Origin: Comamonadaceae bacterium
GTDB taxonomy: Bacteria > Pseudomonadota > Gammaproteobacteria > Burkholderiales > Burkholderiaceae_C
Assembly: GCA_021299875.1 (NCBI GenBank)
Contig: JAJTEW010000005.1
Span: 161,370-193,369 of the forward strand
Length of the DNA: 32,000 nt
Reading direction: 5' to 3'
Position 1 is the first letter of the stretch. Every line of letters begins with the position of its first letter. The notes beneath the pieces are model-generated. The model was not told the DNA's origin. It searched no databases and saw nothing but the letters and a program-made list of their open reading frames with translations. Below are positions 2,081 through 28,617 of the stretch, in pieces. The position numbers were made by a program, and so were the translations under genes.

Positions 2081-5000
2081 ATGAACAAAATTTTCAAACG
2101 CATCTGGAGCGCCAACCGATGCGCCTATGTCGTCGTCGCCGAAACCGCACGATCAGTGGGTCAAACGAGCTCCGCCGTGAGCGGAGCCTTGATCGCCTCG
2201 GTGCTGCTCAGCACCGGTGCTGGCGCCCAAACCCTCGCGGCTGGTGTTTTACCCACAGGGGGGCAAGTGACTGCCGGCCAAGCCAGTATTGCCAGCCAAG
2301 GGGCGGTGATGAACGTGCAGCAAAGCAGTCAGCGCGCCGCCATCAACTGGCAGAGCTTCAGCATTGGCAGCGGTGCCACAGTCAACTTCCAGCAGCCAAG
2401 CGCCAGTGCTGTCACGCTCAACCGTGTGGTGGGCGCAGAGCGCAGCGTGATCGACGGCGCACTCAAGGCCAACGGGAACGTCTATATCCTCAACGCCAAC
2501 GGCGTCCTGTTCAATCGCAGCGCGCAGGTCAATGTTGGTGGATTGGTGGCCAGCACCTTGAACATCAGCGATGCCGATTTCATGGCAGGCAAGACCACCT
2601 TCGAGTCCACCGGCTCGCGCGGCAGCATCATCAACCTGGGCACGCTCACGGCCGCCAACGCGGGACACATCGCATTGCTGGGCCAGCACGTGGCCAACGA
2701 GGGGGTCATCAGCGCCACCCTGGGTGCGGCTGTGTTGGCCGCAGGGGATAAAGTTTCGCTTAACTTCAACGGCAATTCGCTGGTGGGCGTGGCGGTGGAC
2801 CGTGGCACGCTCAATGCGCTGGTGGAGAACAAGCAAGCCATCATGGCCGACGGCGGCCGGGTCACATTGACTGCCAAGGGCCTCGACCAGGTGATGCAGA
2901 CGGTGGTCAACAACACGGGTGAAATCCGTGCCCAGACCCTACAAAATCAAGAAGGCAAGATCTACTTGCTCGGGGGCATGACCAATGACCGCATTGAAGC
3001 CGGTGGCAACCTCGATGCGAGCGCACCCCATGGGGGCCATGGTGGCTTTGTAGAGACCAGTGCCGCCCATGTGCAAATCAAGGACGACGTTCGTGTCACC
3101 ACACAAGCTGCGCGGGGCCGCACTGGGACATGGCTGATTGACCCCAACGATTACACCGTAGCTGCGTCGGGCGGGAACATCACCGGTGTGGTGCTTGGCA
3201 ACCAACTGGCGACCAACAACGTAGAGATAAGTACGGCGTTGGCAGGTACTTCTGGCGGCAACGGGGACATTTTTGTCAATGACAACATCTCTTGGTCGAG
3301 CGGCAACCGACTGACGCTGACTGCTGAGCGCCATATCAAGATCAACGCCACGATCGACGCCTCGGGTGGTTCAGGCGGTGCAGTCACTTTGAACTACGGA
3401 CAGGGTGCAGTTGCTACAGCCAATACCGCTGGCTACGACTTCGGTCTCACCTCAACGGGCTTCGCCGGCAAAATCAAACTTCAGGCAGGGCAAAACTTCA
3501 CCACCAAACTTGGCTCAGATGGCGCGCCGATCAACTGGACGGTGATCACGCAACTGGGCAGTGCGGGTGACGAGACGCAGGCCGGGGCGACCAACAGCCT
3601 GCAGGGCCTTGCAGACAGCAGCCGTTTGGCTGGCAACTTTGTTTTGGGTGCTGACGTTGACGCATCGGCCACTGCTGGGTGGAACAGTGGACAGGGTTTT
3701 AAGCCCATTGGTTTGCTCACCAATGCCCAAACGGGGGATCCACTGAATGTGGGTCAAGCTTTTAGTGGGTCCTTCGATGGCTTGGGCAACGCCATCAACG
3801 GACTGCACATGGACCAAACGTCCTATGAAAGAGTCAGCACGGGACTTTTTGGGACCGTACTTTCCTCAAATTTAAAAAATTTGGAATTTAAAAATGCCAA
3901 TATCAAGGGTGGTAATGTCATTTCTACCCAAGCTTTTGCCGATCAGGATCGAGTCATCAGCGGCACAGGCATCCTTGCTGGCAATGCCATCAATACCAAC
4001 ATCAGCAATATTTTGATATCTGGACCCATCGGAAGCAATACCCTGACGGCCACGGGCAGGAACAATTTGGGTGGATTGGTGGGTAATTATGAAATTGCAA
4101 ATGATGCGTCACTGGATTATGGCGTCTCGAATATCTACGTCAACGCCACTTTGAATGTTGGGTATGATGCAGGAGTTGGTGGTATTAATGAAGACGTTGA
4201 TTACAATCGTACAGGGGGATTGTTCGGCAGTGCTTTTGGGTTTGGTAATAAATTTATTAACCTTAAAAATGTGCATTTTAATGGTTCTATTAATGATTTA
4301 ACATCGAGAGCGATGGAGAGAGTGGGGGGGCTGATTGGTTTATCTGGATTGATCAACATTTCGCATGCTACTGTCACGGCTAACATATTGGCATTAATTT
4401 CAGATCGGACTGCCCAATATATTGGTGGTGCTGTGGGTATCATTGAATACTCGTCTGATCAGAATATTGAGACAAACGGGACTTTGCCTTACTCATCTTT
4501 GACCGATATTGCTGTATCCGGCCATATTCGTGGCAGTGGGAATGTGGGCGGTATTGTTGGTCACACTGGCTATACTTTATTTAATAGGGTAAAAAATTCT
4601 GCAAATATCTCTTATGTCTATCGCAATGATTATTTTGGCGGATTGGTTGGGCGTGGTTATTCATTAAAAATATTGGACAGTTCTAACACGGGTCATGTGA
4701 CCGGTGGAGATCGTTATGTCGGAGGCTTTGTAGGTGAGGGGGGTGGGCTTGAAATTAGACGCAGTTTTTCTACTGGGAATATCACATCTGATTCTACCTA
4801 TTCTACCCATTCAGCACTGAAGCTCGGTGGACTGATTGGCTATGCTGCGTCTGGATTGATTTTATCTGACAGTTATTCCACAGGTGATGTCATGCCAAAA
4901 ACCGGAAAACCGGCTGGTGAAATTGGAGGGCTGATTGGCTGGTGGCGTTCAGGTGATAGGGATGATGTGATAACGGGGAGTTATTCATCCGGAAAAATTG

Positions 5001-6355
5001 GATCGGCTGCCAATCCATTTGGTAATAAAGTGGGTGGTTTGATTGGCAAAATGGAGAGCACCACATCCAGTAATTTTGCACAGATCATTGATTCGCGCTA
5101 CATTGGTCCAGGGATTTACGGTGCGGATGAGGTCGGGGGTTTGATTGGTACTATTACATGGACTCAGTCTGGCCAAAATTCGCTCCACAAAGTCGAGCGG
5201 AGCTACAGTACCGGATCCGTCACAGGGCGGGATTATGTTGGCGGTCTTTTTGGTAAAATCTCTAACCTTGCGGTCTCTGAAAGTTATGCCACTGGCCATG
5301 TATCCGGTCGTAATTTTGTGGGCGGTCTTGCAGGTGAGATTTCTACTGCATACACGGAAACAATAAATTACACCAATGTTTATGGCGTCGATCCTGATTA
5401 TCCCCATGTTGTTTCAAGCGTCAGAAATTCATATGCGAAAGGCAATGTCACCGCCTCTGGTGAAAAAGGAGGGGGGTTCATTGGTGGGCTGTTCTTCGGG
5501 AGTCTTGAAAATGTTTATTCCACAGGTGCGGTCATGGCTTCAACCCATGCTGGTGGTTTGGTTGGCAGTGCGGTTTACGATAAACCAGTGGGTGAGCTCT
5601 ATGGTTATGATGAAAATTCGAAGGAGGTTGCTTGCAGTATCTCGTCAGTTTGTAACTACGCCTATTTTAAAATAACGGGCAGTGAGCCAGCGCTTGCAAC
5701 AAATAGCGTCATTAACAGTTTTTGGGATGTGCAAACGTCAGGACTTGGAATGGTCAACAGCCCCCAACAAAGTGCGGGTGGAATTGGTCAATCAACAATG
5801 GAGATGCAAAAAAACACTCTTTTTAAAAATGCAGGATGGAGTTTGTCGACACCCATCAACGGCAGTTCTTATCCCTACTTGTTGTGGTTGGATGGACAAT
5901 CAACACCTGTTTGGCAATCTTATGGAACACCTGTATCTAATTTTGTACCCCCTGTAACGCCTCGCCTGCTCGCCCCCGAGTCGGGCCAAACTGGCGGCAA
6001 GACCTCTGATGTGCTGTTGCCCGCCTCTTACGTGGTCAACACTGCAGCACGGCTGAATACGGGCACCGCCCAGTCAATGCCTGGCAATGTTGTGACCATA
6101 CCGCCATCGCTGTCATTGCCGTTTGCACAAGGTGAGAACTTGTCGGTGATTTCGTCACCGAATGCCGTCGAGTCCACCACGCCCGTTACCCTCAGCCAGG
6201 CCTTGGTCATGACCCGTGAGCAGGGTTCGGGCGCGTCTGAAGGCACGGGTGAAGTCCGCGTGCCCGTGAGCCGCAACAGCCTGGTCGAGATTGTCAATGG
6301 TGGCGTCAGGCTACCTGGCGGTGTCGAGCAACAGCTCTTTGTGGTCCGCCAGTAA
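2081..6355 (+). CDS. tpsA: Two-partner secretion exoprotein (TpsA): ESPR leader, haemagglutination-activity (TPS) domain, GLUG-repeat passenger
   Basis: 1424 aa. MNKIFKRIWS...YVVVAE is an ESPR-type extended signal peptide. LPTGGQVTAGQASI...NWQSFSIG...NFQQPS...LNRVVG...NGNVYILNANGVLF is the TPS domain. About 15 (V/L)GG(L/F/I)(I/V/F)G GLUG-like repeats lie between about aa 600 and 1180. There is no VENN/pretoxin motif or recognisable C-terminal toxin. Confidence 0.9.
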   Translation: MNKIFKRIWSANRCAYVVVAETARSVGQTSSAVSGALIASVLLSTGAGAQTLAAGVLPTGGQVTAGQASIASQGAVMNVQQSSQRAAINWQSFSIGSGATVNFQQPSASAVTLNRVVGAERSVIDGALKANGNVYILNANGVLFNRSAQVNVGGLVASTLNISDADFMAGKTTFESTGSRGSIINLGTLTAANAGHIALLGQHVANEGVISATLGAAVLAAGDKVSLNFNGNSLVGVAVDRGTLNALVENKQAIMADGGRVTLTAKGLDQVMQTVVNNTGEIRAQTLQNQEGKIYLLGGMTNDRIEAGGNLDASAPHGGHGGFVETSAAHVQIKDDVRVTTQAARGRTGTWLIDPNDYTVAASGGNITGVVLGNQLATNNVEISTALAGTSGGNGDIFVNDNISWSSGNRLTLTAERHIKINATIDASGGSGGAVTLNYGQGAVATANTAGYDFGLTSTGFAGKIKLQAGQNFTTKLGSDGAPINWTVITQLGSAGDETQAGATNSLQGLADSSRLAGNFVLGADVDASATAGWNSGQGFKPIGLLTNAQTGDPLNVGQAFSGSFDGLGNAINGLHMDQTSYERVSTGLFGTVLSSNLKNLEFKNANIKGGNVISTQAFADQDRVISGTGILAGNAINTNISNILISGPIGSNTLTATGRNNLGGLVGNYEIANDASLDYGVSNIYVNATLNVGYDAGVGGINEDVDYNRTGGLFGSAFGFGNKFINLKNVHFNGSINDLTSRAMERVGGLIGLSGLINISHATVTANILALISDRTAQYIGGAVGIIEYSSDQNIETNGTLPYSSLTDIAVSGHIRGSGNVGGIVGHTGYTLFNRVKNSANISYVYRNDYFGGLVGRGYSLKILDSSNTGHVTGGDRYVGGFVGEGGGLEIRRSFSTGNITSDSTYSTHSALKLGGLIGYAASGLILSDSYSTGDVMPKTGKPAGEIGGLIGWWRSGDRDDVITGSYSSGKIGSAANPFGNKVGGLIGKMESTTSSNFAQIIDSRYIGPGIYGADEVGGLIGTITWTQSGQNSLHKVERSYSTGSVTGRDYVGGLFGKISNLAVSESYATGHVSGRNFVGGLAGEISTAYTETINYTNVYGVDPDYPHVVSSVRNSYAKGNVTASGEKGGGFIGGLFFGSLENVYSTGAVMASTHAGGLVGSAVYDKPVGELYGYDENSKEVACSISSVCNYAYFKITGSEPALATNSVINSFWDVQTSGLGMVNSPQQSAGGIGQSTMEMQKNTLFKNAGWSLSTPINGSSYPYLLWLDGQSTPVWQSYGTPVSNFVPPVTPRLLAPESGQTGGKTSDVLLPASYVVNTAARLNTGTAQSMPGNVVTIPPSLSLPFAQGENLSVISSPNAVESTTPVTLSQALVMTREQGSGASEGTGEVRVPVSRNSLVEIVNGGVRLPGGVEQQLFVVRQ

Positions 6356-6388
6356 CGGCGTTAATCCCTTATCCAGGAAATCATAAGA

Positions 6389-8101
6389 ATGAATACCAAA
6401 TGTCAACACGCCTTGGGGACGGGCTTCGCGCTTTCTTTGCTGCTGTCTGTTTCAGCACAAGCCCAGACGGTTCCAAATATTGGCGATGCGCTGCGCCAAG
6501 TGCCCTCGGTGCCAACCCAGAATAAGTCGGCTGCAGCACTGCCCAAAGTAGGTGGGATTCCCTTTGAGCCCCCAATGGTGCGCCTGCCCAGCGCTGGCCC
6601 GACTGTCCAAGTCAAGCGCTTTGAGTTTGTGGGTAATCGTGAGGTCAGCACCGATGCCTTGTTGGCCCAAGTGGCACAAGATGTTGGTAAACCCTACACC
6701 CTGACCGAACTGGAGGCGCTGGCCACCAAACTGACACGCTATTACCGCGTGAAAGGCTATTTTGTGGCCAGGGTCTACATTCCAGCGCAAGAAGTTGTAG
6801 ATGGCGTCGTCAAGCTGCGTGCGGTGGAGGGCAACTACGGCAAGTTCACGTTGGACAACAAGAGCTTGGTGCGTAACGACATCGTTCAAGGCATGCTCGA
6901 CGACGTCAAGAAGTACGACATCGTGTCGCTTGACACGCTGGAACGTGCCATGCTCATCATCAACGATACGCCCGGCAGCCAGGTGGTGCGCGCCGATGTG
7001 ATGCCCGGCGTCGAGGTCGGTACCAGTGACTTTGCGGTGGGCACGATCGCGGATCCCCGGTACGAGGGTTTTGTTTTAGTGGACAACCATGGGACCCGCG
7101 CTACAGGCAAGAACCGCACAAGTTTTAACTGGGATTGGAATTCGCCAACCGCCCGTGGCGATCGCCTGGGTGTGTCTGGATTGGCCAGTGAAAACAGCGG
7201 ACTGCTCAATGGCCGTGTGGCCTATTCAACCAACCTCACGCCCAGTGGCTGGCGTGGTGAAGTGGCTATTGGCAGAACTCAATACGAAGTTTCTCCCAGC
7301 ATCTTCAGTGCCGATCCGGCTCCCAGTGTGACTGGAACTGCAGATACCTATGCATTGAGTTTGAGCTATCCAATTCGTCGCATTCGGTCTCAAACCATTG
7401 AGTTGGAATTGGGCTACGCGCACAAACGACTGGAAGATGTTGTGGATTCTGGACCTGATGCGCGCTTGGTCACGCCCAAGCGAAGCGACGTGATCAGTGC
7501 TGCCATTAACCTGCGTGATGAAGGCTATTTTTGGGGGTTTGATGGCCTCACCCAAGCCAATGTGGGTCTCACGGCAGGTCAGCTCCGTGTGATCGGCGAC
7601 GCCCTGACCACGGACCAGGCCGTCAATGGACCGCGAACCCATGGGCGCTTTGACAAGTTCAATGCCAGCTTGAGCCGTGTGAGTTTGCTGCCAAATCTTT
7701 TCAGTTTGACTGGCATTCTCAAAATTCAACGTTCATTGGGTCAAAACCTTGATGGCACTGAGCGCATGGGCGTCGCGGGTGTGGGTGGCGTCATGGCTTA
7801 CCCCAGCGCTGAGCTTTCTGGCAGCAACGCATCTTTGGCGCGTCTGGAACTGGCCAGGCCTTTGCCTGTTTTTGAACAGGTTGTCAGCCAGTGGTCGATT
7901 TTTGCCAACTGGGGCAAAGCGCAAGAACTGAAGTCTGACGGTCATCGCTCGCTCAACGATGTCGGCATCGGCTGGACTGCGCGGCACAGCAGTGGGGTTT
8001 TGGTAAAAACCTATCTGGCCCACCGTTTGGATGCCATGCCTGCACAAAGCGAAACCACGCCACGAAACAAATTGTGGATTCAGGCGGGCTACGTGTTTTA
8101 A
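6389..8101 (+). CDS. tpsB: ShlB/FhaC/HecB-family outer-membrane transporter (TpsB)
   Basis: 570 aa with a signal peptide (...LLLSVSAQAQ). It has POTRA-type segments (VKRFEFVGNREVS...LTRYYRVKGYFVARVYIPAQEV.DGVVKLRAVEGNYGKF) and a C-terminal beta-barrel ending in an aromatic residue (..IQAGYVF). It lies 33 nt downstream of tpsA. Confidence 0.9.
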   Translation: MNTKCQHALGTGFALSLLLSVSAQAQTVPNIGDALRQVPSVPTQNKSAAALPKVGGIPFEPPMVRLPSAGPTVQVKRFEFVGNREVSTDALLAQVAQDVGKPYTLTELEALATKLTRYYRVKGYFVARVYIPAQEVVDGVVKLRAVEGNYGKFTLDNKSLVRNDIVQGMLDDVKKYDIVSLDTLERAMLIINDTPGSQVVRADVMPGVEVGTSDFAVGTIADPRYEGFVLVDNHGTRATGKNRTSFNWDWNSPTARGDRLGVSGLASENSGLLNGRVAYSTNLTPSGWRGEVAIGRTQYEVSPSIFSADPAPSVTGTADTYALSLSYPIRRIRSQTIELELGYAHKRLEDVVDSGPDARLVTPKRSDVISAAINLRDEGYFWGFDGLTQANVGLTAGQLRVIGDALTTDQAVNGPRTHGRFDKFNASLSRVSLLPNLFSLTGILKIQRSLGQNLDGTERMGVAGVGGVMAYPSAELSGSNASLARLELARPLPVFEQVVSQWSIFANWGKAQELKSDGHRSLNDVGIGWTARHSSGVLVKTYLAHRLDAMPAQSETTPRNKLWIQAGYVF

Positions 8102-11065: not shown

Positions 11066-12049
11066 TTATTTAAAAACTTCAATAAGAAAGTTTTTAATGT
11101 AATCATCGGCTATTTTTTCTGCTTGAGGATTTTTCCCGATGGTATAGCCAGGTTTCACGCACTTATCAAAACCGGCTGGTTTTTCCAAGTTGAATGGCGC
11201 CATGACGCCATCATTCCTAATTACCAACCATAAACCCTTATCAGTGAAAATCGTATGACAATCCCTTAGGTTAATTGTCTTTCGAAAAGACAATTGAGAA
11301 TTGACTTCCCAAGCGTGATGTGCATCAGGTATGATCAGGTATTTTGAATAAGAATCTTTTTTATTTAAATTGTTAAATTTCTTTTTACATACTTCCAGGT
11401 CCAAAGATTCATCTTTTTCGCCCACAATAAGAAGAAAGGGGATTTCTGTTAATTTTGGTGTTTCGAAACTGAATTGACACCCGCCATATAAACTAATATT
11501 GGCTGCAAATTTATGGTTTGTTCTTGATATTTTTGAGGTAATATTGTCCAAATTAAGGTAATAAGATGTAACCCCGCCAAATGAAAATCCAATAACTCCA
11601 ATTTTGGACTCATCAATTGCGTTGATGCCTGCAATGTGATTCAATCCCGCTATGGCATCTGCGGCTTGTGCAAATGGTGAGACTTCAAACAACCGTCTTG
11701 CGTGTGGCATCTTCTCGACACCTCTTGACAGGTAGGAATCAATGACCAAGGCATACATGCCAAGTCGATTGAATTTTTCACCATAATTTAATTCTCGGCC
11801 ATCTGAAATTCCACCGCTGCCGTGCAAGACGATCATGGCGGGTGCTTTGGGTGAAATCGGATGATTAGGAACAAATAATTTGCCTTTGACCGTGATTTCG
11901 CGCCACTTCTCTTGAACAACATCTTCGTATTGACGTGGGTTCAATGACCTGAATTCAATTTCTTGAATTTCTTTGGTTGATGCGCTTTGGGCTGCGGAAG
12001 ACCCCGATACAACGAGAAGGGCCAGAGTAAGTAGTATTGGTACTTTCAT
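11066..12049 (-). CDS. Secreted dienelactone-hydrolase-like alpha/beta hydrolase
   Basis: 327 aa with a signal peptide (MKVPILLTLALLVVSGSSAAQS). It has an HGSGG oxyanion-type motif, a G-F-S-F-G-G nucleophile elbow and a late DAHHAW His. The gene is markedly AT-rich compared with its flanks. Confidence 0.7.
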   Translation of the reverse strand: MKVPILLTLALLVVSGSSAAQSASTKEIQEIEFRSLNPRQYEDVVQEKWREITVKGKLFVPNHPISPKAPAMIVLHGSGGISDGRELNYGEKFNRLGMYALVIDSYLSRGVEKMPHARRLFEVSPFAQAADAIAGLNHIAGINAIDESKIGVIGFSFGGVTSYYLNLDNITSKISRTNHKFAANISLYGGCQFSFETPKLTEIPFLLIVGEKDESLDLEVCKKKFNNLNKKDSYSKYLIIPDAHHAWEVNSQLSFRKTINLRDCHTIFTDKGLWLVIRNDGVMAPFNLEKPAGFDKCVKPGYTIGKNPQAEKIADDYIKNFLIEVFK

Positions 12050-12928: not shown

Positions 12929-14230
12929 GTGTCTATGCAAGATTTGGAACGGCAGCAGGCAGCAAACGACACCCAATATTTCCCGCCACGGCACCGCACA
13001 TTGCCCATCTTGGCGTCTGTCTCGCCCATTGCTAACTACCCAAGCAAGTTGAGAATATTCAAGACCATGGCCAGCAGGTATTGGCAAGTGCGCTGCTACC
13101 TAAAAGGCAGGACCTACACACAAAGCCTCAAGACCACCAACAAGCAAGCGGCCATCAGTGCGGCCAAGCAGTTCTTTCACATCAAGACAGCTGAGCTGTA
13201 TTCAGATCAAGTGACTGCTCGCGGTGACAAGAGTCCCAAGTTTGCCGACCTGCTGCCAGCAGTCCTTCAAGGCTTGCAAGCCAGGGTCAAGCGAGGCGAG
13301 TTTGCTGCTGCCAATATCCCCATCTTTTTGCAACGGATGCACAACAGTATCCTGCCGTACTTTGGTGATATGACCATGGACAAAATTGGCTACAAAGAGT
13401 TGTCGGCCTTTATGGAGATGATGAGCAATCGGGACTTGACAGCCACAACAGTGCATCAGCACATGGTGGCCATACGCAAGATCTTTGCGCACGCACACGG
13501 CAACAACATCATCCAGAACCTTCCCAAGTTCCCAGTCATCAAAGTCGCAGACAAGCCTCGTGGCAGTTTTACACTGGCCGAATACCGTGACCTAGTGAGT
13601 TTGGCTCGGCAGCGCATTGGCCAACCCGTGCCCCAAGCGTTCTCCAAAAAATACCGCAGCAGCAGTGAGATTCTTGAACGGCATGGCGTGATCAATACAG
13701 ATTTGCATTGGCTCATTCGTTTCATGGTCAATGGCTTCATGCGTCCCGGTGACATCAAATTCTTCAAACACAAACATGTCACCATCGTTCGTGGCAAGCA
13801 CATCTACTTGAGACTGAACTTGCCCGAAACCAAGAAGCACGACAAGCCCATCGTGACCCTGCAGCCCGCGGTGTTTGTTTATGAACGCCTACTGGCCAAG
13901 CAAATTGCAGAAGGCTATGGCGGGCCCAACGACTATGTGTTCTTGCCCGAGTTGGACGACAGGAAATGGCTGTTGGTGGTCTACGGGTGGCAGTTCATGT
14001 ATCTGCAAAGTCTGGCGGGTATAGCTGGCAATGCGGCCAACGGCCAAACCAGAACAATCTACAGCTTGCGGCACACGGCCATGACATTCCGGCTGCTTTA
14101 TGGCGGCAAGATTGACTTGCTGACACTGGCACGCAATGCTCGTACCAGTGTGGAGATGATTGAGCGGTTCTACGCCAGCAACTTGACGGCAGAGATGAAC
14201 ATCGACTTGCTGCAGGGCAAGCGAACCTAG
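12929..14230 (+). CDS. Tyrosine-type site-specific integrase (apparently intact)
   Basis: 433 aa; an alternative start is ATG 13067 (MASRYWQVRCYLKGRTY..). The C-terminal catalytic region reads IYSLRHTAMTFRLLYGG...LARNARTSVEMIERFY, with the R-H box and a candidate catalytic Tyr. Confidence 0.88.
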   Translation: MSMQDLERQQAANDTQYFPPRHRTLPILASVSPIANYPSKLRIFKTMASRYWQVRCYLKGRTYTQSLKTTNKQAAISAAKQFFHIKTAELYSDQVTARGDKSPKFADLLPAVLQGLQARVKRGEFAAANIPIFLQRMHNSILPYFGDMTMDKIGYKELSAFMEMMSNRDLTATTVHQHMVAIRKIFAHAHGNNIIQNLPKFPVIKVADKPRGSFTLAEYRDLVSLARQRIGQPVPQAFSKKYRSSSEILERHGVINTDLHWLIRFMVNGFMRPGDIKFFKHKHVTIVRGKHIYLRLNLPETKKHDKPIVTLQPAVFVYERLLAKQIAEGYGGPNDYVFLPELDDRKWLLVVYGWQFMYLQSLAGIAGNAANGQTRTIYSLRHTAMTFRLLYGGKIDLLTLARNARTSVEMIERFYASNLTAEMNIDLLQGKRT

Positions 14231-14246: not shown

Positions 14247-14267
14247 ATCGTCCAGTAACAAGACGAT
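14247..14267 (+). repeat. 21-bp site S1: ATCGTC CAGTAACAA GACGAT
   Basis: The 6-bp inverted arms are perfect and the 9-nt spacer is asymmetric. The site lies 17 nt after the integrase stop codon. Confidence 0.8.
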
Positions 14268-14402: not shown

Positions 14403-14431
14403 TTGCATATAAAAAATAAAATTGTTAATAC
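14403..14431 (+). promoter_or_regulatory. Possible sigma70-type promoter
   Basis: TTGCAT (14403-14408), a 17-nt spacer, then TAATAC (14426-14431). The ATG at 14445 would leave a very short leader with no clear SD. Confidence 0.3.
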
Positions 14432-14444
14432 TTGGGAATTTAAT

Positions 14445-15149
14445 ATGACTACTGCCACTTTTATGGAAAATTTCAGCAGCGATTTGGTCTCTATCAAAGT
14501 GACTGGAGATGGTGCCAATGTTTGGGCGTACGCGATTGACGCAGAGACCTATGCCCGCATTTCCGAGGACTGTGGCGATGAAGACCCAGTTGATGTGATC
14601 ATGGACGAGTACCAAGTGGGACAGTTGGTTTGCTGGGGTATAGATGAATCCAGCGGTTGCACTGTATCTATGGATGTGGCCGGAAAATCCACTTTATTAA
14701 AAATCGTCCATACCTACGATGGTTATGACATCGATGAAGCAGTTAAGGATCGCAATCTTTCCGCTTCCACACCAATTATTGAGTACAACAGTGACGCGGC
14801 AGAGAGACTTGGCGCTGTTTTCGACCTAAGCGATTTGAGTCATGTTTTTGTGGACTCAATAACCTGGAAAGACATAACTCTGCAGCTTACGTTGCCTGTT
14901 GTGGCTAGAGATTTTGATCAGCGTAAACTTTCGCTACTGGTTTGCGGTATGGACTCTGAAACTGAATTGTCAGCACTCACTTACCAGACCGGCTTATTGA
15001 ATGGCCTGGAAGCCGACATCATTGGCGTCATCTATGACGGCAAAAAATACTTCTTCCAGTCCGAATGTAAGCGTGCTTTTCAGCAACGTCGATACATAGT
15101 TGGTCGCACGGATGATGGCTGGGAAATTGACGAAAAAGTTACAATCTAA
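14445..15149 (+). CDS. Acidic hypothetical protein, 234 aa
   Basis: This is an open frame whose likely start is MTTATFMENF, inside ORF 14403-15149. I recognise no domain. It lies between the inverted sites S1 and S2. Confidence 0.5.
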   Translation: MTTATFMENFSSDLVSIKVTGDGANVWAYAIDAETYARISEDCGDEDPVDVIMDEYQVGQLVCWGIDESSGCTVSMDVAGKSTLLKIVHTYDGYDIDEAVKDRNLSASTPIIEYNSDAAERLGAVFDLSDLSHVFVDSITWKDITLQLTLPVVARDFDQRKLSLLVCGMDSETELSALTYQTGLLNGLEADIIGVIYDGKKYFFQSECKRAFQQRRYIVGRTDDGWEIDEKVTI

Positions 15150-15151
15150 AA

Positions 15152-15240
15152 GTATAGGGAGAGGTCACAATTTAACGGCAATGATTGAGCAGCACTACTC
15201 AAAGTTGACGGCGACGATGGCAGCCGACAGGTTGGCTTAA
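15152..15240 (+). pseudogene. Relic 3' end of a tyrosine integrase gene
   Basis: It reads ..GHNLTAMIEQHYSKLTATMAADRLA*, which parallels ..ARTSVEMIERFYASNLTAEMNIDLL of the intact integrase. No upstream coding part is present. Confidence 0.5.
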
Positions 15241-15260
15241 ACGTCTGGTTACTGGACGAT
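15240..15260 (-). repeat. 21-bp site S2; the plus strand reads AACGTC TGGTTACTG GACGAT, the normalised form is ATCGTC CAGTAACCA GACGTT
   Basis: S2 is inverted relative to S1, and the spacers are identical at 8 of 9 positions. It overlaps the TAA stop of the integrase relic. Confidence 0.75.
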
Positions 15261-15295: not shown

Positions 15296-15361
15296 TTACT
15301 TAAGCAATTCCAAAACAAGTTGAGGTTGCGAATTTGCTTGTGCCAGCATGGCCGTTGCTGC
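15296..15361 (-). other. In-frame continuation of the flagellin reading frame beyond its TGA stop
   Basis: The 21 codons after the TGA at 15362-15364 read AATAMLAQANSQPQLVLELLK then TAA. That is the canonical flagellin extreme C-terminus (compare E. coli FliC ..AQIIQQAGNSVLAKANQVPQQVLSLLQG). Confidence 0.8.
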
Positions 15362-17908
15362 TCATTCGATTATTTGAGCTTTAGCTAAATTTGTGGTTTC
15401 AATTGCATAGTTTGTGTCATTAATTGAGCTACGGGATGATTCCAAATTCATATTTAAATTTATTAAATTATCGCCAATATGTGTTAAGGCATTAATATTT
15501 GAACCTAAAATTGATCGTTGAGAGCCAATATTATTGATTGCGTAATTAATCCTATCAATGGAAAGTTGAGCCAAGCCAGTCGTAATTAGGCTAACACCGT
15601 CAGTAAAACCTTGTGTAATAACCGCGCTTGGTATTGATGGTGCACTGATAGAATCACCAGTAAATAAACTTATATCTGGAGTATTTGTATTTGTGATAAC
15701 GCTAGTAAAAGTTATTTTGTTATCGGTCTCTAATCCAGACCGAAATCCGGACAAGCTGCCTGAATATGCACCACTATTTTGTTGTGGTCCAGTTGTATTG
15801 CCAGAAGTTAAATTTGAATATGCAAGAGCTACTTCAGTCGCATTTAAAGATGATGTGGCCGTAAATTTTAATCCGGAAATCTCCAACGATTGACCTATTT
15901 TCATTGGGGAAAACGTTAAAGTGTTTTTTTCAGTTAGGGCAAGAATGTCTGATATGCCTTGTGTAAAATTAATTAAAGGTAAATTCTGCGGAGATTCTAC
16001 CGCAGTACTACCACTTATCTCGAGATCAGTAACATTTGTATTGGAATTCGTACTTGTAACATTTATTATTGTTTTAAAATATTGATTACCTTGTGCAATA
16101 TATGGAACTTTTATGATTGTACTGGTTGAGAAATCACTTCTAAAAGTTCCGGAATATCTGCCATTTGCAGAGTTTGCAGGTCCAGTTGTGTCAGATGGAG
16201 AAATTCCAGAAAAAGCTGATGCTACTTCATCAGTAGTTAGAGGCTTGTTAGCTGTGAATCTCAGCCCCCCAATTGATAACCATTGCCCTGTGTACATCGC
16301 GGAAAAACTAATTTTAACCTCTTCTGTTGCACCAGTAGGTGATGCACCTTGAGTAATAGTGCTGACAATTGGTTGTGGATTTGCGGTAGTATACGCAGAT
16401 ATTGGTGCTTGCATTAAATAGTTACTGGTAAATTTGACAATTTTACCATTTGCTGGACCAGTCGAAAATGGATCTCCCGATGTGTTGAACGATCCATATA
16501 GAGAACTGTATGCAAAATAATTATTGCTTTCACGATTAGCAAAGATAGTTGCAACTTGATTTGCGTTAAGAGATGTTGATGCTCTAAAGCTTAACCATTT
16601 ATTATTGTTCCAAATAGTAATGGTTTGATTCGGTTGTAAATCCGTAAATTCGATTTCAGCAACTTCAGGATTTCCGGCATATATCGGTGCACCTTGCGTT
16701 GTACTTATTGAGGGTAATTCTAATTCACGCATCCCTTCTCCCCTATTTAAAATTTGAGAACCAGGTCTATGAATACTATTTGTGAAAATCACTGTGTCAC
16801 CGATGGTCGAGCTACTATCATACGACCAAAATAATCCACCGCTAAATGTCCCGTTGTTTGAGGATGGTCCAGGTGTGACGCCTCCATTTATATTCGAAAA
16901 TGCAATGGCTACTTCTTCAGCAGTTAAAAATTTATTTGCAGTAAATCTGAGGTTATCAATTGTAATGGATTGCGATTGTTGCAAAGGGTAGAATTTAATT
17001 TCATTTATTGTTCCTTTACCTTCAACAGCTATATTTCCCTGAACTGTAGCTATATTGGGTAGTACCAATTTATCAACACCATTTGTACTAATTGAAATAT
17101 CCGATACATTTATATTTGAAATTACACTTGATGCAATTAATTCACTGCCATTGGCACTTGCTGTTGAGTAGTTTTTAAGAGTTCCATCGTATTCTCCATA
17201 ACTGCTTCCTTGACCGAACTTTGCCCCAGCCGTCATATTGGAAAAAGCTGAAGCAACTTCATTTTCAGTTATATTTTTACTGGCTGTAAAATTTAATCCG
17301 TTTAATGTTATCGATTGCCCTAGTTGCAAAGATGTAAAATTAATTTTCGCTGACTCAGTTACCCCACCACTATAGCTTTGACCAACACTTCCAACAAGAC
17401 CAATATCAGATAGTCCTATTCCACTTATTGACACTGGAAATTCATGATCTTTATTAGCTCCTATTTGTAATTTTTGATTTATAAAAGATCCATCTAAAAG
17501 TTTTTTTCCATTCCATGTTGTTGATTCTTTTAGACGTAATATTTCTTTTTGAATTTCCATTGCTTCTAAATGTAAATAATAGCGTTGTTCATCACTATAT
17601 GTATCAGTTGAAGCTTGTATTGTGAGTTCTCGCATCCGTTGCAATAAATCAGTTATCGAGCCTAAAGCTGATTCTGCAGTTTTTATCAAACTGATACCGT
17701 CTTGAATGTTACGTATTGCTTGGCTAGACCCTCGAATTTGGCTTGTCATTTTGTTGACAATTGCTAGACCTGCTGCATCATCTTTAGCATTGTTAATTCT
17801 CAAGCCTGTCGAAAGTCGTTGCATTGCTGTTGAAACTTTTGATTGGTTAGACCGCAACGATTCCTGCGCAAGAAGCGCTGAAGTGTTGGTTCTAACAGTC
17901 AATGACAT
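15362..17908 (-). CDS. Giant flagellin-family protein with five tandem central repeat domains, ended prematurely by an in-frame TGA
   Basis: Starting at MSLTVRTNTSALLAQ, the flagellin N domain reads RLSTGLRINNAKDDAAGLAI...IRNIQDGISLIKTAESAL..I..LLQRMRELTIQA. The C domain reads ...SQRSILGSNINAL...L.SSRSSINDTNYAIETTNLAKAQIIE. The centre holds five units of about 115-130 aa, each with L(N/R/K)FTA.K.L...EVA.AFS and each ending in TQG. The gene is strongly AT-rich. Confidence 0.85.
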   Translation of the reverse strand: MSLTVRTNTSALLAQESLRSNQSKVSTAMQRLSTGLRINNAKDDAAGLAIVNKMTSQIRGSSQAIRNIQDGISLIKTAESALGSITDLLQRMRELTIQASTDTYSDEQRYYLHLEAMEIQKEILRLKESTTWNGKKLLDGSFINQKLQIGANKDHEFPVSISGIGLSDIGLVGSVGQSYSGGVTESAKINFTSLQLGQSITLNGLNFTASKNITENEVASAFSNMTAGAKFGQGSSYGEYDGTLKNYSTASANGSELIASSVISNINVSDISISTNGVDKLVLPNIATVQGNIAVEGKGTINEIKFYPLQQSQSITIDNLRFTANKFLTAEEVAIAFSNINGGVTPGPSSNNGTFSGGLFWSYDSSSTIGDTVIFTNSIHRPGSQILNRGEGMRELELPSISTTQGAPIYAGNPEVAEIEFTDLQPNQTITIWNNNKWLSFRASTSLNANQVATIFANRESNNYFAYSSLYGSFNTSGDPFSTGPANGKIVKFTSNYLMQAPISAYTTANPQPIVSTITQGASPTGATEEVKISFSAMYTGQWLSIGGLRFTANKPLTTDEVASAFSGISPSDTTGPANSANGRYSGTFRSDFSTSTIIKVPYIAQGNQYFKTIINVTSTNSNTNVTDLEISGSTAVESPQNLPLINFTQGISDILALTEKNTLTFSPMKIGQSLEISGLKFTATSSLNATEVALAYSNLTSGNTTGPQQNSGAYSGSLSGFRSGLETDNKITFTSVITNTNTPDISLFTGDSISAPSIPSAVITQGFTDGVSLITTGLAQLSIDRINYAINNIGSQRSILGSNINALTHIGDNLINLNMNLESSRSSINDTNYAIETTNLAKAQIIE

Positions 17909-18341
17909 CGGTACTATCTGAACTAAAAGAGTATTAAAGTGCGAAGTGCAACCAAGCTTAGCAAGCACTTTTCATGCCCAAATAATATTTTTGATAAATG
18001 AGTACTTTTTTAATAAAAAATATCGTTAGTATATTTTTTTCCCTATGGGCCGGCAAATTTTTGCCGCTTGATGTCAGCAATCTGTTGAGTACTTGCTTGA
18101 CTAGACCAATGTTAAATACTGAATAAGGATGCATTTACATCCAGTGCTACCCACCCCAGCTTGTGTTCATCATCTCGTTTATGCACGGGAGAGTCCAAAT
18201 GGGGGGATTTCGTCAAGCATTTTCATCCCAGCACTTTTTTCTTTGACATGCTCGACTGGAGTATTTTTCGCGCATGTATTCCATCTTTTTCTGACTGTTC
18301 AGCAAAGCACGGAATTTCTTTTGGGCCACTAGTTGATAGCC

Positions 18342-18362
18342 ATCGTCCATCAACAGGACGAT
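18342..18362 (+). repeat. 21-bp site S3: ATCGTC CATCAACAG GACGAT
   Basis: The arms are perfect. S3 lies 38 bp from S4 in the same orientation, downstream of the minus-strand gene 18392-19267. Confidence 0.7.
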
Positions 18363-18379
18363 CAAGCTCACAACATCAA

Positions 18380-25344: not shown

Positions 25345-28149
25345 TCACTGTAAACGGCTGACCCCGGGATAGCGTTCGCTTGCTGACAGCGCACGGGTCA
25401 CGTCGTGATTGGCGGTCACACGGCCCCCCAAAGTAACCACGGAAACTCGTCGAGCAACGTTCTTGCTCTGGGCGTCGTAGTCGTAGACCACAGCGCTGAT
25501 GGATCCGGTGGTGACCTCGGTCAGGAAGCCCCTGACCGACGATATCGAAGTGCCGCCCGCCGCCAAGTTTGCAACGGGTGTCACGGCTCCGGCGGCGGGA
25601 TTGAAGCGCATGAGTTTGCCGTTCGTTGTGCCGTAGTACAAGGCACCGTCACTGGCCGACAAGAAGCCTGTTGATGGCACATCGGGCAAGTCGCCGACCA
25701 CCTTGGTCAACACCGGTGCGCTGCGGCACAGGTCGTCTGGGCCTAAGCCTCGATCAATGGTCCAGATCGACCCACCCGGGTTGCCATCGGCCCGTTGTGC
25801 CATGGCCATGTACATGGCGTTCTGTGCTGCCACAAACACTGGGCCTCCGACCGGAAGCCCCTCGCTGGCTGGCCGGAACGCGCTGTTTGGGCCAAAGGTA
25901 AGTGATTTGATCGAGATCTTGGGGTCGCTGATCCGTGCGCAAGCGACGGTGTAAATGGGAGCACCCACTGAGATATCGCCTTCTGCCGCATAGTAGACCG
26001 CGTCATCACGGATCGCCGGTTTCCAGTCGTTATCGGCAGGCAGGCGGGATGCGAAAACCTGCACCCACTCGGTGGCCTTCAACGTCTTCGTGTCCACATG
26101 CAGCAGCTTTTGTCGATAGTAGCCACCGTCTCCGCTTGAGACGCCTGACTTTTCAGCAATTGCTGTGAGCCAAGCTGAATCGCCTTGCCCAAGCACGAGT
26201 TCTGCTCCCAGGTAGGCTATGTCTGTCACCTCGGCCATCCGGACGGGCTCCATGGTGCTGCGCTGGTAGATCACCACGCCCAGGCCACCGCCGGCCCTGT
26301 CTCTCGAACCACGATGACCGCCGAGACGCCCAGAATCGTAGCTTGGGGACGTCAGCGAAATCAGGCCGATGAGATGGTCAGGCCCGAGCGGCTGAAGCTT
26401 GCCGTAGGGATAGGCTCCGCGGTCTGGGTCGATGGGCACCGAGGTAATCTTTCCGTTGAAACGGTCATACTTGTTCACCACGTGTGATGCCTCGTTCGCA
26501 GCACTGGCCAACCACACGACGTAGCGGTCGAGAACGCCGTCGCTGGCCGAACTGCCCGTTGCCGGATTACCGTGAAAATATTTCCCCAAAGTGGCCGAAC
26601 CGGTTGCCAGGGTCTTTCTGAAGAAAAGTCGGCTGGGATCCAGTTCCAACAACTGCGAAGGCGTGCACGGCAAAACTGAATTGGGCCTCTCATCGCAGAT
26701 GCCGGCAGCAACGTCGGTTGAGGCAGCAAATAACAGCCCCGACGCCGGTGACGATGTGAGCCCGGCAAAGTAGCTGCCGAAGTAACCTTTGGGCTCGTCT
26801 CTGATCCAGGCCGACATCGTGCTGGCGTTACTTAGGTTGAGGCTTGCTGCCTGCGACAGCAGCTTGGGTGCCGAAATCTGCAAACTGGTTTCGGCGTCGA
26901 GGCCGCTGCAGGCAACCAGCGATTCGTTGCTAAAGGATATGGGCAACACCCCCTCGATACGGTGGCAGTCGATCTCGGCCAGCCTGTAAAGCGCGGTATT
27001 GCTCCCGGGTGGGCCAAAAATCTGAGCCTCGCGGCTTTGTATGTCCTCGACTGTCCAGCGCACGGTACCACTCGCGTCTTCGAACAGGTAGCGCCCAAGT
27101 CGCTTGCCTACGGGATTGAACTGGCTGATCGCGGTGAAGGTCCAAGGCCGTGACAGGTCATTTCCCACGGGCGGTGCAAGGCTGAAGATCCGCCCGTTTT
27201 TGGTGTAGGTGGCCGCGCCGCCCACTGAACCAGCAGGCGCGCAGGCTACAGCCGTGGGATCTGCAGCGTTCAAGATGTAGCGCGAACCCTGCGTGCCCAG
27301 CAAGATCTTGGTGCGGTCGCGTGACCACACCATCTCCGTCTTCTCACCGACGAGTCCACTGCAAAGACCTTCTTCCATATCGCGTGAGAAAAAGTCATAG
27401 ACCACGGTTTCTTTCAGGTAGTTTGCGCTTCCCTGGTCGAGCACCACATGCAATAACAGCCCGCGGCCAGCGCGGCCACCGTCGACCATGACCATCAGCG
27501 ACTTGCCATCTTTGCTTACAAGCGGGGTGCGAATGGTGTTGTTCGGTCGCAGATCTGAGACGGTGATGCCGGGACCTGCGGTCTTTCCTGCGCCCCTCGT
27601 GTCCAATGTCTTGAGGAGCTCCAGTTTGTCGGTGACCGGATCGAAACGCATGAGAACGATTTGGTTCTCAGAAGGCAAGGACGAGTTGCTCAAGAACCCG
27701 TAGAAGCGACCGTCAACTTCGTTGAAGGCGAAAGAATGCTCGTTTGGGCTGGTGTTCCTCATGAATGGTCTGCCGGTGAAGGTCTTGACCACTTTGGAAC
27801 CGCTGCCGTCAAACTGATAGATCTCGCCCAGGCGCGTGGCGCCGCCGCTTTGAGCAACCAGCGCTAGGGAGCCGAACAATTCCGCCGGCAGAGGCGTGTG
27901 CGCCACCGGCGTACCTGAGGCAGCGGCCACAGTCGTACCCACTGCCGAGTCGGTGGTCACGGACCGCTCGGCCAAAACAAAGGGCCCCTCGATGGTTGTT
28001 ATTGTTATGGCTGGAATGACACTGAGATCCCTAGGGGGCAGTGCGTCAGCCGTTGGAGCATCGGAACCACCAGAACAGGCGGTTACAGCAAGCGCTACAG
28101 TGACTAAGAGGGTGAGGTTGCAGATGGACTTCATAATGATTATTTTCAT
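25345..28149 (-). CDS. Large predicted lipoprotein, 934 aa, unknown function
   Basis: A GC-rich long ORF. The N-terminus MKIIIMKSICNLTLLVTVALAVTAC carries a lipobox Cys. The sequence is Gly/Ser/Thr-rich and beta-strand-like, and I recognise no family. Confidence 0.7.
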   Translation of the reverse strand: MKIIIMKSICNLTLLVTVALAVTACSGGSDAPTADALPPRDLSVIPAITITTIEGPFVLAERSVTTDSAVGTTVAAASGTPVAHTPLPAELFGSLALVAQSGGATRLGEIYQFDGSGSKVVKTFTGRPFMRNTSPNEHSFAFNEVDGRFYGFLSNSSLPSENQIVLMRFDPVTDKLELLKTLDTRGAGKTAGPGITVSDLRPNNTIRTPLVSKDGKSLMVMVDGGRAGRGLLLHVVLDQGSANYLKETVVYDFFSRDMEEGLCSGLVGEKTEMVWSRDRTKILLGTQGSRYILNAADPTAVACAPAGSVGGAATYTKNGRIFSLAPPVGNDLSRPWTFTAISQFNPVGKRLGRYLFEDASGTVRWTVEDIQSREAQIFGPPGSNTALYRLAEIDCHRIEGVLPISFSNESLVACSGLDAETSLQISAPKLLSQAASLNLSNASTMSAWIRDEPKGYFGSYFAGLTSSPASGLLFAASTDVAAGICDERPNSVLPCTPSQLLELDPSRLFFRKTLATGSATLGKYFHGNPATGSSASDGVLDRYVVWLASAANEASHVVNKYDRFNGKITSVPIDPDRGAYPYGKLQPLGPDHLIGLISLTSPSYDSGRLGGHRGSRDRAGGGLGVVIYQRSTMEPVRMAEVTDIAYLGAELVLGQGDSAWLTAIAEKSGVSSGDGGYYRQKLLHVDTKTLKATEWVQVFASRLPADNDWKPAIRDDAVYYAAEGDISVGAPIYTVACARISDPKISIKSLTFGPNSAFRPASEGLPVGGPVFVAAQNAMYMAMAQRADGNPGGSIWTIDRGLGPDDLCRSAPVLTKVVGDLPDVPSTGFLSASDGALYYGTTNGKLMRFNPAAGAVTPVANLAAGGTSISSVRGFLTEVTTGSISAVVYDYDAQSKNVARRVSVVTLGGRVTANHDVTRALSASERYPGVSRLQ

Positions 28150-28173: not shown

Positions 28174-28617
28174 TTAATTCATGAAATAGGCAAGTGCAAT
28201 CAACATTGCCAGGATGGCAATGATTCGCCACGCGCTTGCTTGGGAGTTGGTGCCGGAATTCAACAATGTCACAGGCTCTGAGGTGGCCAGAATTGGCTCA
28301 TCTTTGTTCGGGGCCACCTGTGCCGCTTCCGTTGCATCCGAAGGAGGCTCCTCATTGACGAGCTCTAGGTGGTCGAATGCCAGTCCCAGTTTGCGCAGGA
28401 GTTTGACCCCAGTCGTGTACTTGATGCTTTCCGAATAAAAGGCCGAGCAACCACCCGTTTCCAGCTCTTGCAGCTGTTTCAAACTCAGCGTGTTCTCCAT
28501 GGCTAAGGTAGTTTGCTCAAGACCGGCCGCCTGGCGCCCCTCCACCAGCAAACTCGCATAGTCTGCTGACCAGATTTGAGATCTGCTGGTACTGGGCGAA
28601 GTCATTTTGATGGGCAA
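28174..28617 (-). CDS. Membrane-anchored helix-turn-helix protein (RodZ/HTH_25-like N-terminus, C-terminal TM helix)
   Basis: 147 aa. LLVEGRQAAGLEQTTLAMENTLSLKQLQELETG resembles the RodZ-type HTH. The C-terminal WRIIAILAMLIALAYF is a TM segment. The gene sits 24 nt upstream of the lipoprotein gene on the same strand. Confidence 0.6.
   Translation of the reverse strand: MPIKMTSPSTSRSQIWSADYASLLVEGRQAAGLEQTTLAMENTLSLKQLQELETGGCSAFYSESIKYTTGVKLLRKLGLAFDHLELVNEEPPSDATEAAQVAPNKDEPILATSEPVTLLNSGTNSQASAWRIIAILAMLIALAYFMN

Follow-up and report, generated by a model that had tools for sequence, protein, structure and literature searches.

A large flagellin gene with five outer-domain repeats and a premature stop codon, probably mobile-element cargo in Limnohabitans

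We analysed a flagellin gene on the minus strand of a 32,000-nucleotide stretch of DNA (hereafter the window) from a Comamonadaceae bacterium (GenBank assembly GCA_021299875.1, contig JAJTEW010000005.1, forward-strand positions 161,370 to 193,369; positions below count from the first letter of the window). The gene is probably a laterally acquired secondary flagellin, carried as mobile-element cargo in Limnohabitans (Betaproteobacteria) and recently knocked out by a nonsense change. An earlier reading of the same letters (the original prediction) had singled it out as an orphan, AT-rich giant flagellin with five tandem insert domains, cut short by an in-frame TGA ahead of a still-intact C-terminus. 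What we find is a locus that combines an island-borne secondary flagellin, a tandemly duplicated outer domain and an ordinary nonsense allele. As a truncated allele the gene is nothing out of the ordinary, being one nonsense allele of an accessory flagellin; most worth following are the recurring backbone of the element, the unannotated repeat domain and a set of 21-bp palindromes. In Limnohabitans, a bacterium abundant in lakes, an accessory flagellin, expressed or dead, bears on whether flagella are used in nature, and how.

The truncated reading frame and its stop codon

The open reading frame (ORF) runs for 848 codons from an ATG at 17908 (alternative upstream start, GTG at 17968) to a TGA at 15362-15364, and its product ends in the residues NLAKAQIIE. 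Beyond the TGA the frame continues for 21 codons, AATAMLAQANSQPQLVLELLK, before it meets a TAA at 15296-15298. The parts of the gene are as follows, with helices taken from an AlphaFold2 (AF2) model.

15365-17908, minus strand: truncated flagellin coding sequence, 848 codons; product identical to WP_414015763.1, annotated flagellin [Limnohabitans sp.]
17486-17896, minus strand: N-terminal D0/D1 helical region (Pfam Flagellin_N, aa 5-141; AF2 helices 2-34, 41-100 and 106-129)
15368-15559, minus strand: C-terminal D1 and proximal D0 helix (Pfam Flagellin_C, positions 1-64 of 86, aa 784-847)
15362-15364, minus strand: premature in-frame TGA, at a position that holds Gln in 115 of 116 homologues and His in one
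15296-15361, minus strand: 21 untranslated in-frame codons (AATAMLAQANSQPQLVLELLK) and TAA, the distal C-terminal D0 helix, which completes Flagellin_C

The Flagellin_N profile is matched over positions 1-137 of 139 (E 3.8e-40, 137.6 bits), while Flagellin_C is matched over only 1-64 of its 86 positions in the ORF as it stands (39.7 bits). When a Gln and the 21 post-stop residues are appended, the match covers 1-86 of 86 and rises to 68.9 bits, a gain of about 29 bits. Thus, the codons behind the TGA encode the true end of the domain, and the original prediction was right both in calling the terminal domains textbook flagellin and in aligning the post-TGA codons with the flagellin terminus. 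By our own count against the Salmonella FliC sequence, the TGA falls on Q473, and the lost segment (22 residues, including the position of the TGA) corresponds to residues 473-494, the distal half of the C-terminal D0 helix. The channel-lining residues of Salmonella FliC, Q484, N488, S491 and R494 (listed in PMC8306008), all lie inside it. The full-length AF2 model has the D0/D1 helices and five repeat domains joined by low-confidence linkers, with a predicted local distance difference test score (pLDDT) of 76.8 and a predicted template modelling score of 0.39. With its 848 aa (870 aa on readthrough), the protein falls into the 'large' class and not, as had been claimed, into the 'giant' one, given that published size classes place large flagellins above 800 aa and giant ones above 1000 aa (PMC6248924).

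The stop codon recurs wherever the gene has been assembled to its 3' end. In three metagenome contigs of the Joint Genome Institute (JGI; L001-L003), which match the window at 99.98-100% identity over 14-22 kb, the TGA and the codons behind it are unchanged, and the few single-nucleotide differences from the window all lie outside the flagellin gene. The exact 848-aa product is encoded in three JGI metagenome samples. A Logan cluster member of 868 aa, which uses the GTG start, ends at the same terminal residue, and of the four members of the cluster of the window protein (P0001), the three that reach the 3' end all stop identically. No intact allele at 90% identity or more is found among about 15 billion proteins, where the next relative is only 41% identical. 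Scans of the metagenome_contigs collection, with a DNA pattern carrying NNN at the stop and with the protein, gave no match; that collection evidently lacks these samples. Since the same TGA appears in the JGI contigs, the Logan contigs and the NCBI protein, it is not an assembly error. The original prediction had allowed that such an error would undo the truncation. The probability that the TGA is a sequencing or assembly artefact over an intact gene is now as good as nil, as the identical triplet stands in three separately assembled JGI contigs and the Logan and NCBI products end at the same residue.

The homologues show what was lost. At the position of the TGA, Gln is found in 115 of 116, His in the remaining one and a stop in none; all 116 keep the full C-terminus in this comparison, of a kind that the original prediction had proposed as a check. 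At this and the preceding position the relatives read CAA-CAA, CAA-CAT and CAG-CAA, as against GAA-TGA in the window. Given CAA, CAT and CAA at the position of the TGA, at least two substitutions are needed. Measured against the relative P0004, the segment after the stop differs at 4 of 21 residues and the one just before it at 7 of 24; the post-stop segment is no more diverged than the pre-stop one, which agrees with a young lesion and is also the only finding that lends a small probability to a selected leaky stop. Hence, of the earlier claim of a very recent nonsense mutation, the truncation and the loss of the D0 segment stand, while a single recent step is not demonstrable when two or more substitutions are involved.

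One further contig (L009; GCA_031545255.1, contig JAVQHW010043777.1, which encodes P0122) is 100% identical to the window down to 16599, in the middle of the third repeat. From there, at 7227-7435 of the contig, 209 nt of unrelated AT-rich sequence run to the contig end and yield a 417-aa product. Our first impression of a second disrupted allele was set aside: unrelated sequence at the end of a contig could be an assembly chimera or an insertion present in another population.

The integrative element around the gene

No flagellar family is present among the 20 main ORFs of the window or among the JGI-called genes over 22.5 kb, in keeping with the earlier remark that flagellar genes are absent nearby. 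The flagellin is surrounded instead by genes that recur together in other loci:

12929-14230, plus strand: 433-aa tyrosine recombinase (family match) at one edge of the element backbone; recurs in related loci
14403-15149, plus strand: 248-aa ORF without family match, GC 0.44, apparent co-cargo; inverted copies of the palindrome at 14247 and 15240
18392-19267, minus strand: 291-aa backbone protein without family match, directly upstream of the flagellin and in the same direction; recurs in related loci
19408-20936, plus strand: backbone pair of a 262-aa protein without family match and a 247-aa clamp-loader-like AAA ATPase; recurs in related loci
20997-21584, minus strand: 195-aa tyrosine recombinase, catalytic domain only, a backbone gene; recurs in related loci

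The ATPase gene (20193-20936) matches phrog_168 at E 2.4e-21. The 195-aa recombinase, with its catalytic domain only, resembles FimB/FimE-type invertases. A third tyrosine recombinase lies at 23651-24682, which places three within 12 kb, and a DUF6641 protein (23103-23543) recurs alongside the recombinases in most of the related loci. The neighbours of 291, 262, 248 and 184 aa match no family in Pfam, NCBIfam, PHROGs or PADLOC.

Two loci with intact flagellins share this arrangement. L004, whose flagellin (P0003) is 39% identical to that of the window, has five genes in common with it: the 195-aa recombinase (53% identity), the 291-aa protein (28%), the 262-aa protein (36%), the AAA ATPase (25%) and the C-terminus of the 433-aa recombinase (54%). 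Between the two loci, the block of the 291-aa gene and the divergent 262-aa/ATPase pair (18392-20936 in the window, 1842-4272 in L004) is turned around with respect to the flagellin and the small recombinase; this could be an ancient rearrangement or a recombinase-driven inversion. In L005 (flagellin P0002, 41% identity) a homologue of the 291-aa protein lies directly upstream of the flagellin, as in the window. A genome search with an alignment of the three 291-aa proteins returned 16 loci that have the same backbone and no flagellin, in Limnohabitans, Polynucleobacter, Methylophilaceae, Dechloromonas, Polaromonas and others. A related element (L014, Limnohabitans sp. MMS-10A-192) has a gene for a porin-like outer-membrane protein (6997-8001) in the slot after the 291-aa gene, which suggests that proteins of the cell surface gather in this slot. 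The gene of P0006, a more distant relative, is found next to guaA, where it marks the integrase end of an island resembling an integrative and conjugative element. The window locus has no match in E. coli genomes by megablast.

Judged by gene content, then, the flagellin occupies a slot for variable cargo in an integrative element, and this is the ordinary explanation of its 'orphan' position. Composition agrees with foreign origin for the window copy in particular. With a guanine-plus-cytosine (GC) fraction of 0.36, and 0.23 at third codon positions (GC3), the gene lies far below its neighbours, as the original prediction had stated (GC 0.44-0.59 and GC3 0.45-0.73 for 18 of the other 19 window ORFs); the flagellins of relatives have GC 0.46-0.59, near that of their flanks. 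The one other AT-rich ORF, a dienelactone-hydrolase-family gene at 11066-12049 (GC 0.39, GC3 0.36), lies just outside the 433-aa recombinase and may be foreign DNA too. Three tyrosine recombinases within 12 kb, the GC3 contrast and a backbone that occurs both with and without a flagellin together mark the gene as island-borne. In freshwater Betaproteobacteria, the cargo slot of one family of small integrative elements repeatedly holds a flagellin, and once a porin, a pattern that fits the idea of flexible islands diversifying the surface structures exposed to phages and grazers.

A consensus search finds no sigma-28-like site upstream of the flagellin in the window or in L004, L005 and L006, and there is no good Shine-Dalgarno sequence before the ATG at 17908; for the window, both absences had been noted in the original prediction. 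An element of another type is present.

17964-17979, minus strand: sigma-54-like -24/-12 element GGGCATGAAAAGTGCT, matching 9 of 12 positions; first base 71 nt upstream of the ATG

Similar elements precede the flagellins of L004 (TGGCACGGAATGTGCT, at -130, 11/12) and L005 (TGGCGTGGTTCTTGCT, at -128, 10/12). Background rates per kb per strand are about 0.27 at 9/12 or better and 0.05-0.18 at 10/12 or better, so the window site alone is not significant; the three sites together are suggestive of a sigma-54 promoter. Such an element, shared by the window and its two nearest relatives, would account for the missing sigma-28 promoter. A sigma-54 activator also adjoins the flagellin in two canonical flagellar loci that carry the repeat domain. 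No convincing intrinsic terminator follows the gene.

The closest known parallels are the island-borne secondary flagellins flnA of E. coli, on an island of about 35 kb excised by the tyrosine recombinase Int1157 (PMC3378880), and fljB of Salmonella with its invertase Hin. As in those systems, the flagellin lies far from a flagellar regulon, on horizontally acquired DNA and beside site-specific recombinases, and the host's own flagellar genes are to be expected elsewhere. Unlike them, the window has a backbone of two or three tyrosine recombinases, a clamp-loader-like ATPase and two proteins without known function, a promoter that looks sigma-54-dependent, and a truncated allele. Unlike fljB, the flagellin has no identified FljA-like repressor near it. 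With respect to the switching of flnA and fljB, the only hint in the window element is the block that is inverted relative to L004.

Readings of the truncated gene

Under the account that we prefer, the ancestor would have been a filament-type flagellin with canonical D0/D1 helices, five tandem beta-rich outer domains of about 115 aa and a sigma-54-type promoter. In the lineage of the window, TGA would have replaced the codon of an invariant Gln that lies 22 codons from the normal end, leaving a product without the distal half of its C-terminal D0 helix. Polymerisation of flagellin depends critically on its terminal regions, and the export chaperone FliS binds the C-terminal D0 segment (PMC8306008, PMC7248283). 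On these grounds the truncated product should not polymerise and should bind FliS poorly, and filament formation by it is predicted to be unlikely; the gene would in effect be a young pseudogene or, at best, encode a non-assembling flagellin. The TGA removes 22 residues that all homologues retain, a disabling lesion relative to every one of them. The gene resembles flagellin pseudogenes of non-motile lineages in its premature stop, its recognisable flagellin sequence and its conserved residual downstream frame; it differs from them in having a single lesion and no clear further decay, and in being an accessory xenologue and not the resident flagellin. No other lesion is found in the 848 codons, and the sigma-54-like site scores 9/12 compared with 10-11/12 in the relatives.

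Several points weigh against this account. There is one disabling lesion only. Elsewhere the ORF looks fully intact, as do the N-terminal domain and the codons behind the stop, so that decay is not independently demonstrable. Two substitutions separate CAA or CAG from TGA, and still the following 63 nt are not excessively diverged. This combination is slightly awkward for neutral decay through TAA and better fits a route through CGA (Arg) or selection of a leaky stop. The samples may represent one near-clonal population, in which case the stop is 'fixed' in a narrow sample only. Lastly, a resident export apparatus in the source genome is plausible at the level of the genus only: cultured Limnohabitans are all reported to be non-motile, yet flagellar assembly genes have been reported from the core genome of the genus (bioRxiv 10.1101/839407; see also PMC6971282), which is what makes such an apparatus plausible.

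If the stop were leaky or programmed, the cell would make mostly a truncated, exportable and non-polymerising flagellin, with minor readthrough (by Trp-tRNA, for example) supplying a full-length subunit able to assemble. TGA is generally the leakiest stop codon of bacteria, the 21 downstream codons are fully open and match the family consensus as well as the pre-stop residues do, and the codon took two substitutions, among which a step from TAA to TGA is what an advantage of leakiness would lead one to expect. Open codons over so short a distance are in themselves weak evidence, however, and a stop, which conserved recoding would predict, stands at this position in none of the 116 homologues (115 Gln, 1 His). 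The base after the TGA is a G, which is not known as a leaky context in E. coli, and readthrough would exchange an invariant Gln of the D0 core for an unusual residue. Nor is a stimulatory or SECIS-like (selenocysteine insertion sequence) RNA structure supported downstream, where the minimum free energy is -20.8 kcal/mol (z -0.85) and 43 of 200 shuffled sequences fold at least as well. A TGA read as sense under an alternative code is at odds with the window, in which TGA ends 9 of 20 ORFs and is internal to none; the flagellin ORF uses TGG five times and TGA once. A scan for tRNA genes, as suppressors or as attachment sites, found none in the window. The suggestion of the original prediction that the TGA is read through or recoded thus finds no support, given the absence of a stop in homologues, the lack of a predicted RNA structure and the ordinary use of TGA in the window, and we regard a leaky or programmed stop as distinctly unlikely.

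Alternatively, the truncated protein may be functional in itself, as a non-filament flagellin that leaves the cell by the flagellar export apparatus and whose five exposed domains serve in adhesion or divert flagellotropic phages or grazers as a decoy. The N-terminal region, which in model flagellins holds the flagellar export signal, is intact; the truncated form is the sole allele seen across several samples, and the repeat domain is also found in secreted RTX proteins. Secreted non-structural flagellins do exist, FlaC being an example (PMC8306008). If exported, the window product would resemble Campylobacter FlaC as a flagellin homologue that leaves the cell without building a filament, although FlaC keeps both termini and lacks a central domain, whereas the window protein has no C-terminal tip and a very large centre. 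Against this, none of the relatives conserves the truncated form (116 of 116 homologues keep the full C-terminus), the intact post-stop codons would be an unexplained leftover, and loss of the FliS-binding segment should lower export and not favour it. We therefore consider a functional truncated protein unlikely. A bolder scheme would join the two, with the TGA as a selected leaky stop that yields two isoforms, an abundant exported decoy or adhesin that does not polymerise and a rare readthrough subunit that enters the host filament; more widely, the cargo slot would swap surface proteins (flagellin, porin) and so alter exposure to phages and grazers. We hold this to be very unlikely. Recent inactivation of an accessory flagellin remains the reading that we favour. 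The data establish the anatomy of the gene, its stop codon, the segment that was lost, the setting in a mobile element and the existence of intact relatives; from these we infer the loss of function, the dependence on sigma-54 and the recency of the event relative to any further decay.

Outer-domain repeats, palindromes and neighbouring genes

The whole hypervariable region of the protein (aa 177-767) consists of five tandem repeats of 108-130 aa; the original prediction had given five of about 115-130 aa. Their pairwise identity is 29-48%, and a hidden Markov model (HMM) of the repeat matches all five copies at E 2e-24 to 4e-38.

17036-17380, minus strand: repeat R1 (aa 177-291; repeat HMM)
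16691-17035, minus strand: repeat R2 (aa 292-406; repeat HMM)
16346-16690, minus strand: repeat R3 (aa 407-521; repeat HMM, AF2 model), the most divergent copy
15956-16345, minus strand: repeat R4 (aa 522-651; repeat HMM), with an insertion of about 15 aa
15608-15955, minus strand: repeat R5 (aa 652-767; repeat HMM, AF2), 47-51% identical to the last repeat of P0002, P0003 and P0004

Tandem Repeats Finder detects no repeat at the DNA level in the gene, which indicates that the duplications are old. R1 pairs best with the first repeat of the nearest relatives and R5 with the last (41-51% identity), so that the outer repeats, at least, are older than the divergence of the window gene from these relatives.

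In the AlphaFold model, R5 folds into a compact, beta-rich domain that includes one helix (pLDDT 85). A structure search with the repeat had been proposed in the original prediction; in the PDB it gave only weak matches, with template modelling (TM) scores of about 0.5 to the outer domains of phage tail sheaths; the best flagellin match, 9atl (Stenotrophomonas flagellin), is also weak (TM 0.45). A strong fold match (TM 0.86) is found in one viral (phage) protein, BFVD A0A1P8VWA9. Searches of Pfam and of PDB sequences with the repeat profile returned nothing significant, and no PDB flagellin is matched at E<=1.

Among 1.84 billion representatives, the profile finds 775 clusters (50% identity) at E<=1e-3, and only 36 of the 147 new top hits have flagellin termini. 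The other carriers include giant FliD caps with up to 7 or more copies, RTX proteins, an ALTTAQ/He_PIG protein and large surface proteins of up to 4408 aa (repeat-bearing examples are P0127, P0130, P0133, P0137 and P0143). Three flagellins with the repeat, P0074, P0061 and P0049, are located in canonical flagellar loci, which shows it to be a genuine outer domain of the filament. Its presence in FliD, RTX and phage proteins shows equally that it is not specific to flagellin. On this sequence and model evidence, we regard the repeat of about 115 aa as an unannotated extracellular domain, one that deserves a family definition.

In its architecture the protein recalls the large and giant flagellins of Bermanella and Oleibacter (Thomson et al. 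2018, PMC6248924), in which tandem duplication of a self-folding outer domain likewise enlarges the hypervariable region between canonical D0/D1 domains. Unlike the giant flagellins, which have two DE regions (PMC6248924), the window protein has five copies and is large only. It also differs from the large and giant flagellins in being encoded as mobile-element cargo, and since the repeat profile matched no PDB flagellin sequence, homology with the DE domain is not established.

A near-perfect palindrome of 21 bp, with consensus ATCGTCCAGtAaCTGGACGAT, occurs seven times in the window and only inside the island (0.86 copies expected by chance), at 14247-14267, 15240-15260, 18342-18362, 18380-18400, 19462-19482, 20940-20960 and 22949-22969. 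The majority are placed at gene boundaries, on either side of the flagellin gene and of the 248-aa ORF.

15240-15260, unstranded: palindrome copy 36 nt beyond the TAA, in the gap that separates the flagellin gene from the 248-aa ORF; an equivalent copy follows the L005 flagellin
18342-18400, unstranded: two palindrome copies (18342-18362 and 18380-18400) upstream of the flagellin, at the 3' end of the 291-aa gene; L005, L013 and L014 share them

Related Limnohabitans elements keep the palindrome at the same backbone positions (L005 at 1860 and 5993; L013 and L014), and more distant elements are without it. The sequence is probably a binding site of an element-encoded protein. Integron attC-like sites and recombinase core sites are less likely candidates, since the symmetric 10-1-10 layout is better suited to a dimeric DNA-binding protein.

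The remaining genes of the window include hydrolase genes and a two-partner secretion pair at 2081-8101. The latter encodes a 1424-aa TpsA-like exoprotein, which has an ESPR signal, a TPS domain and a GLUG motif, and behind it a ShlB/FhaC-type transporter; the exoprotein gene is in part of lower GC (0.43-0.47 at 4001-6000). On the minus strand, ORFs of 934 aa (25345-28149) and 147 aa (28174-28617) have GC 0.59 and 0.53; neither has a match in Pfam or PADLOC, nor does the 934-aa ORF have one in NCBIfam.

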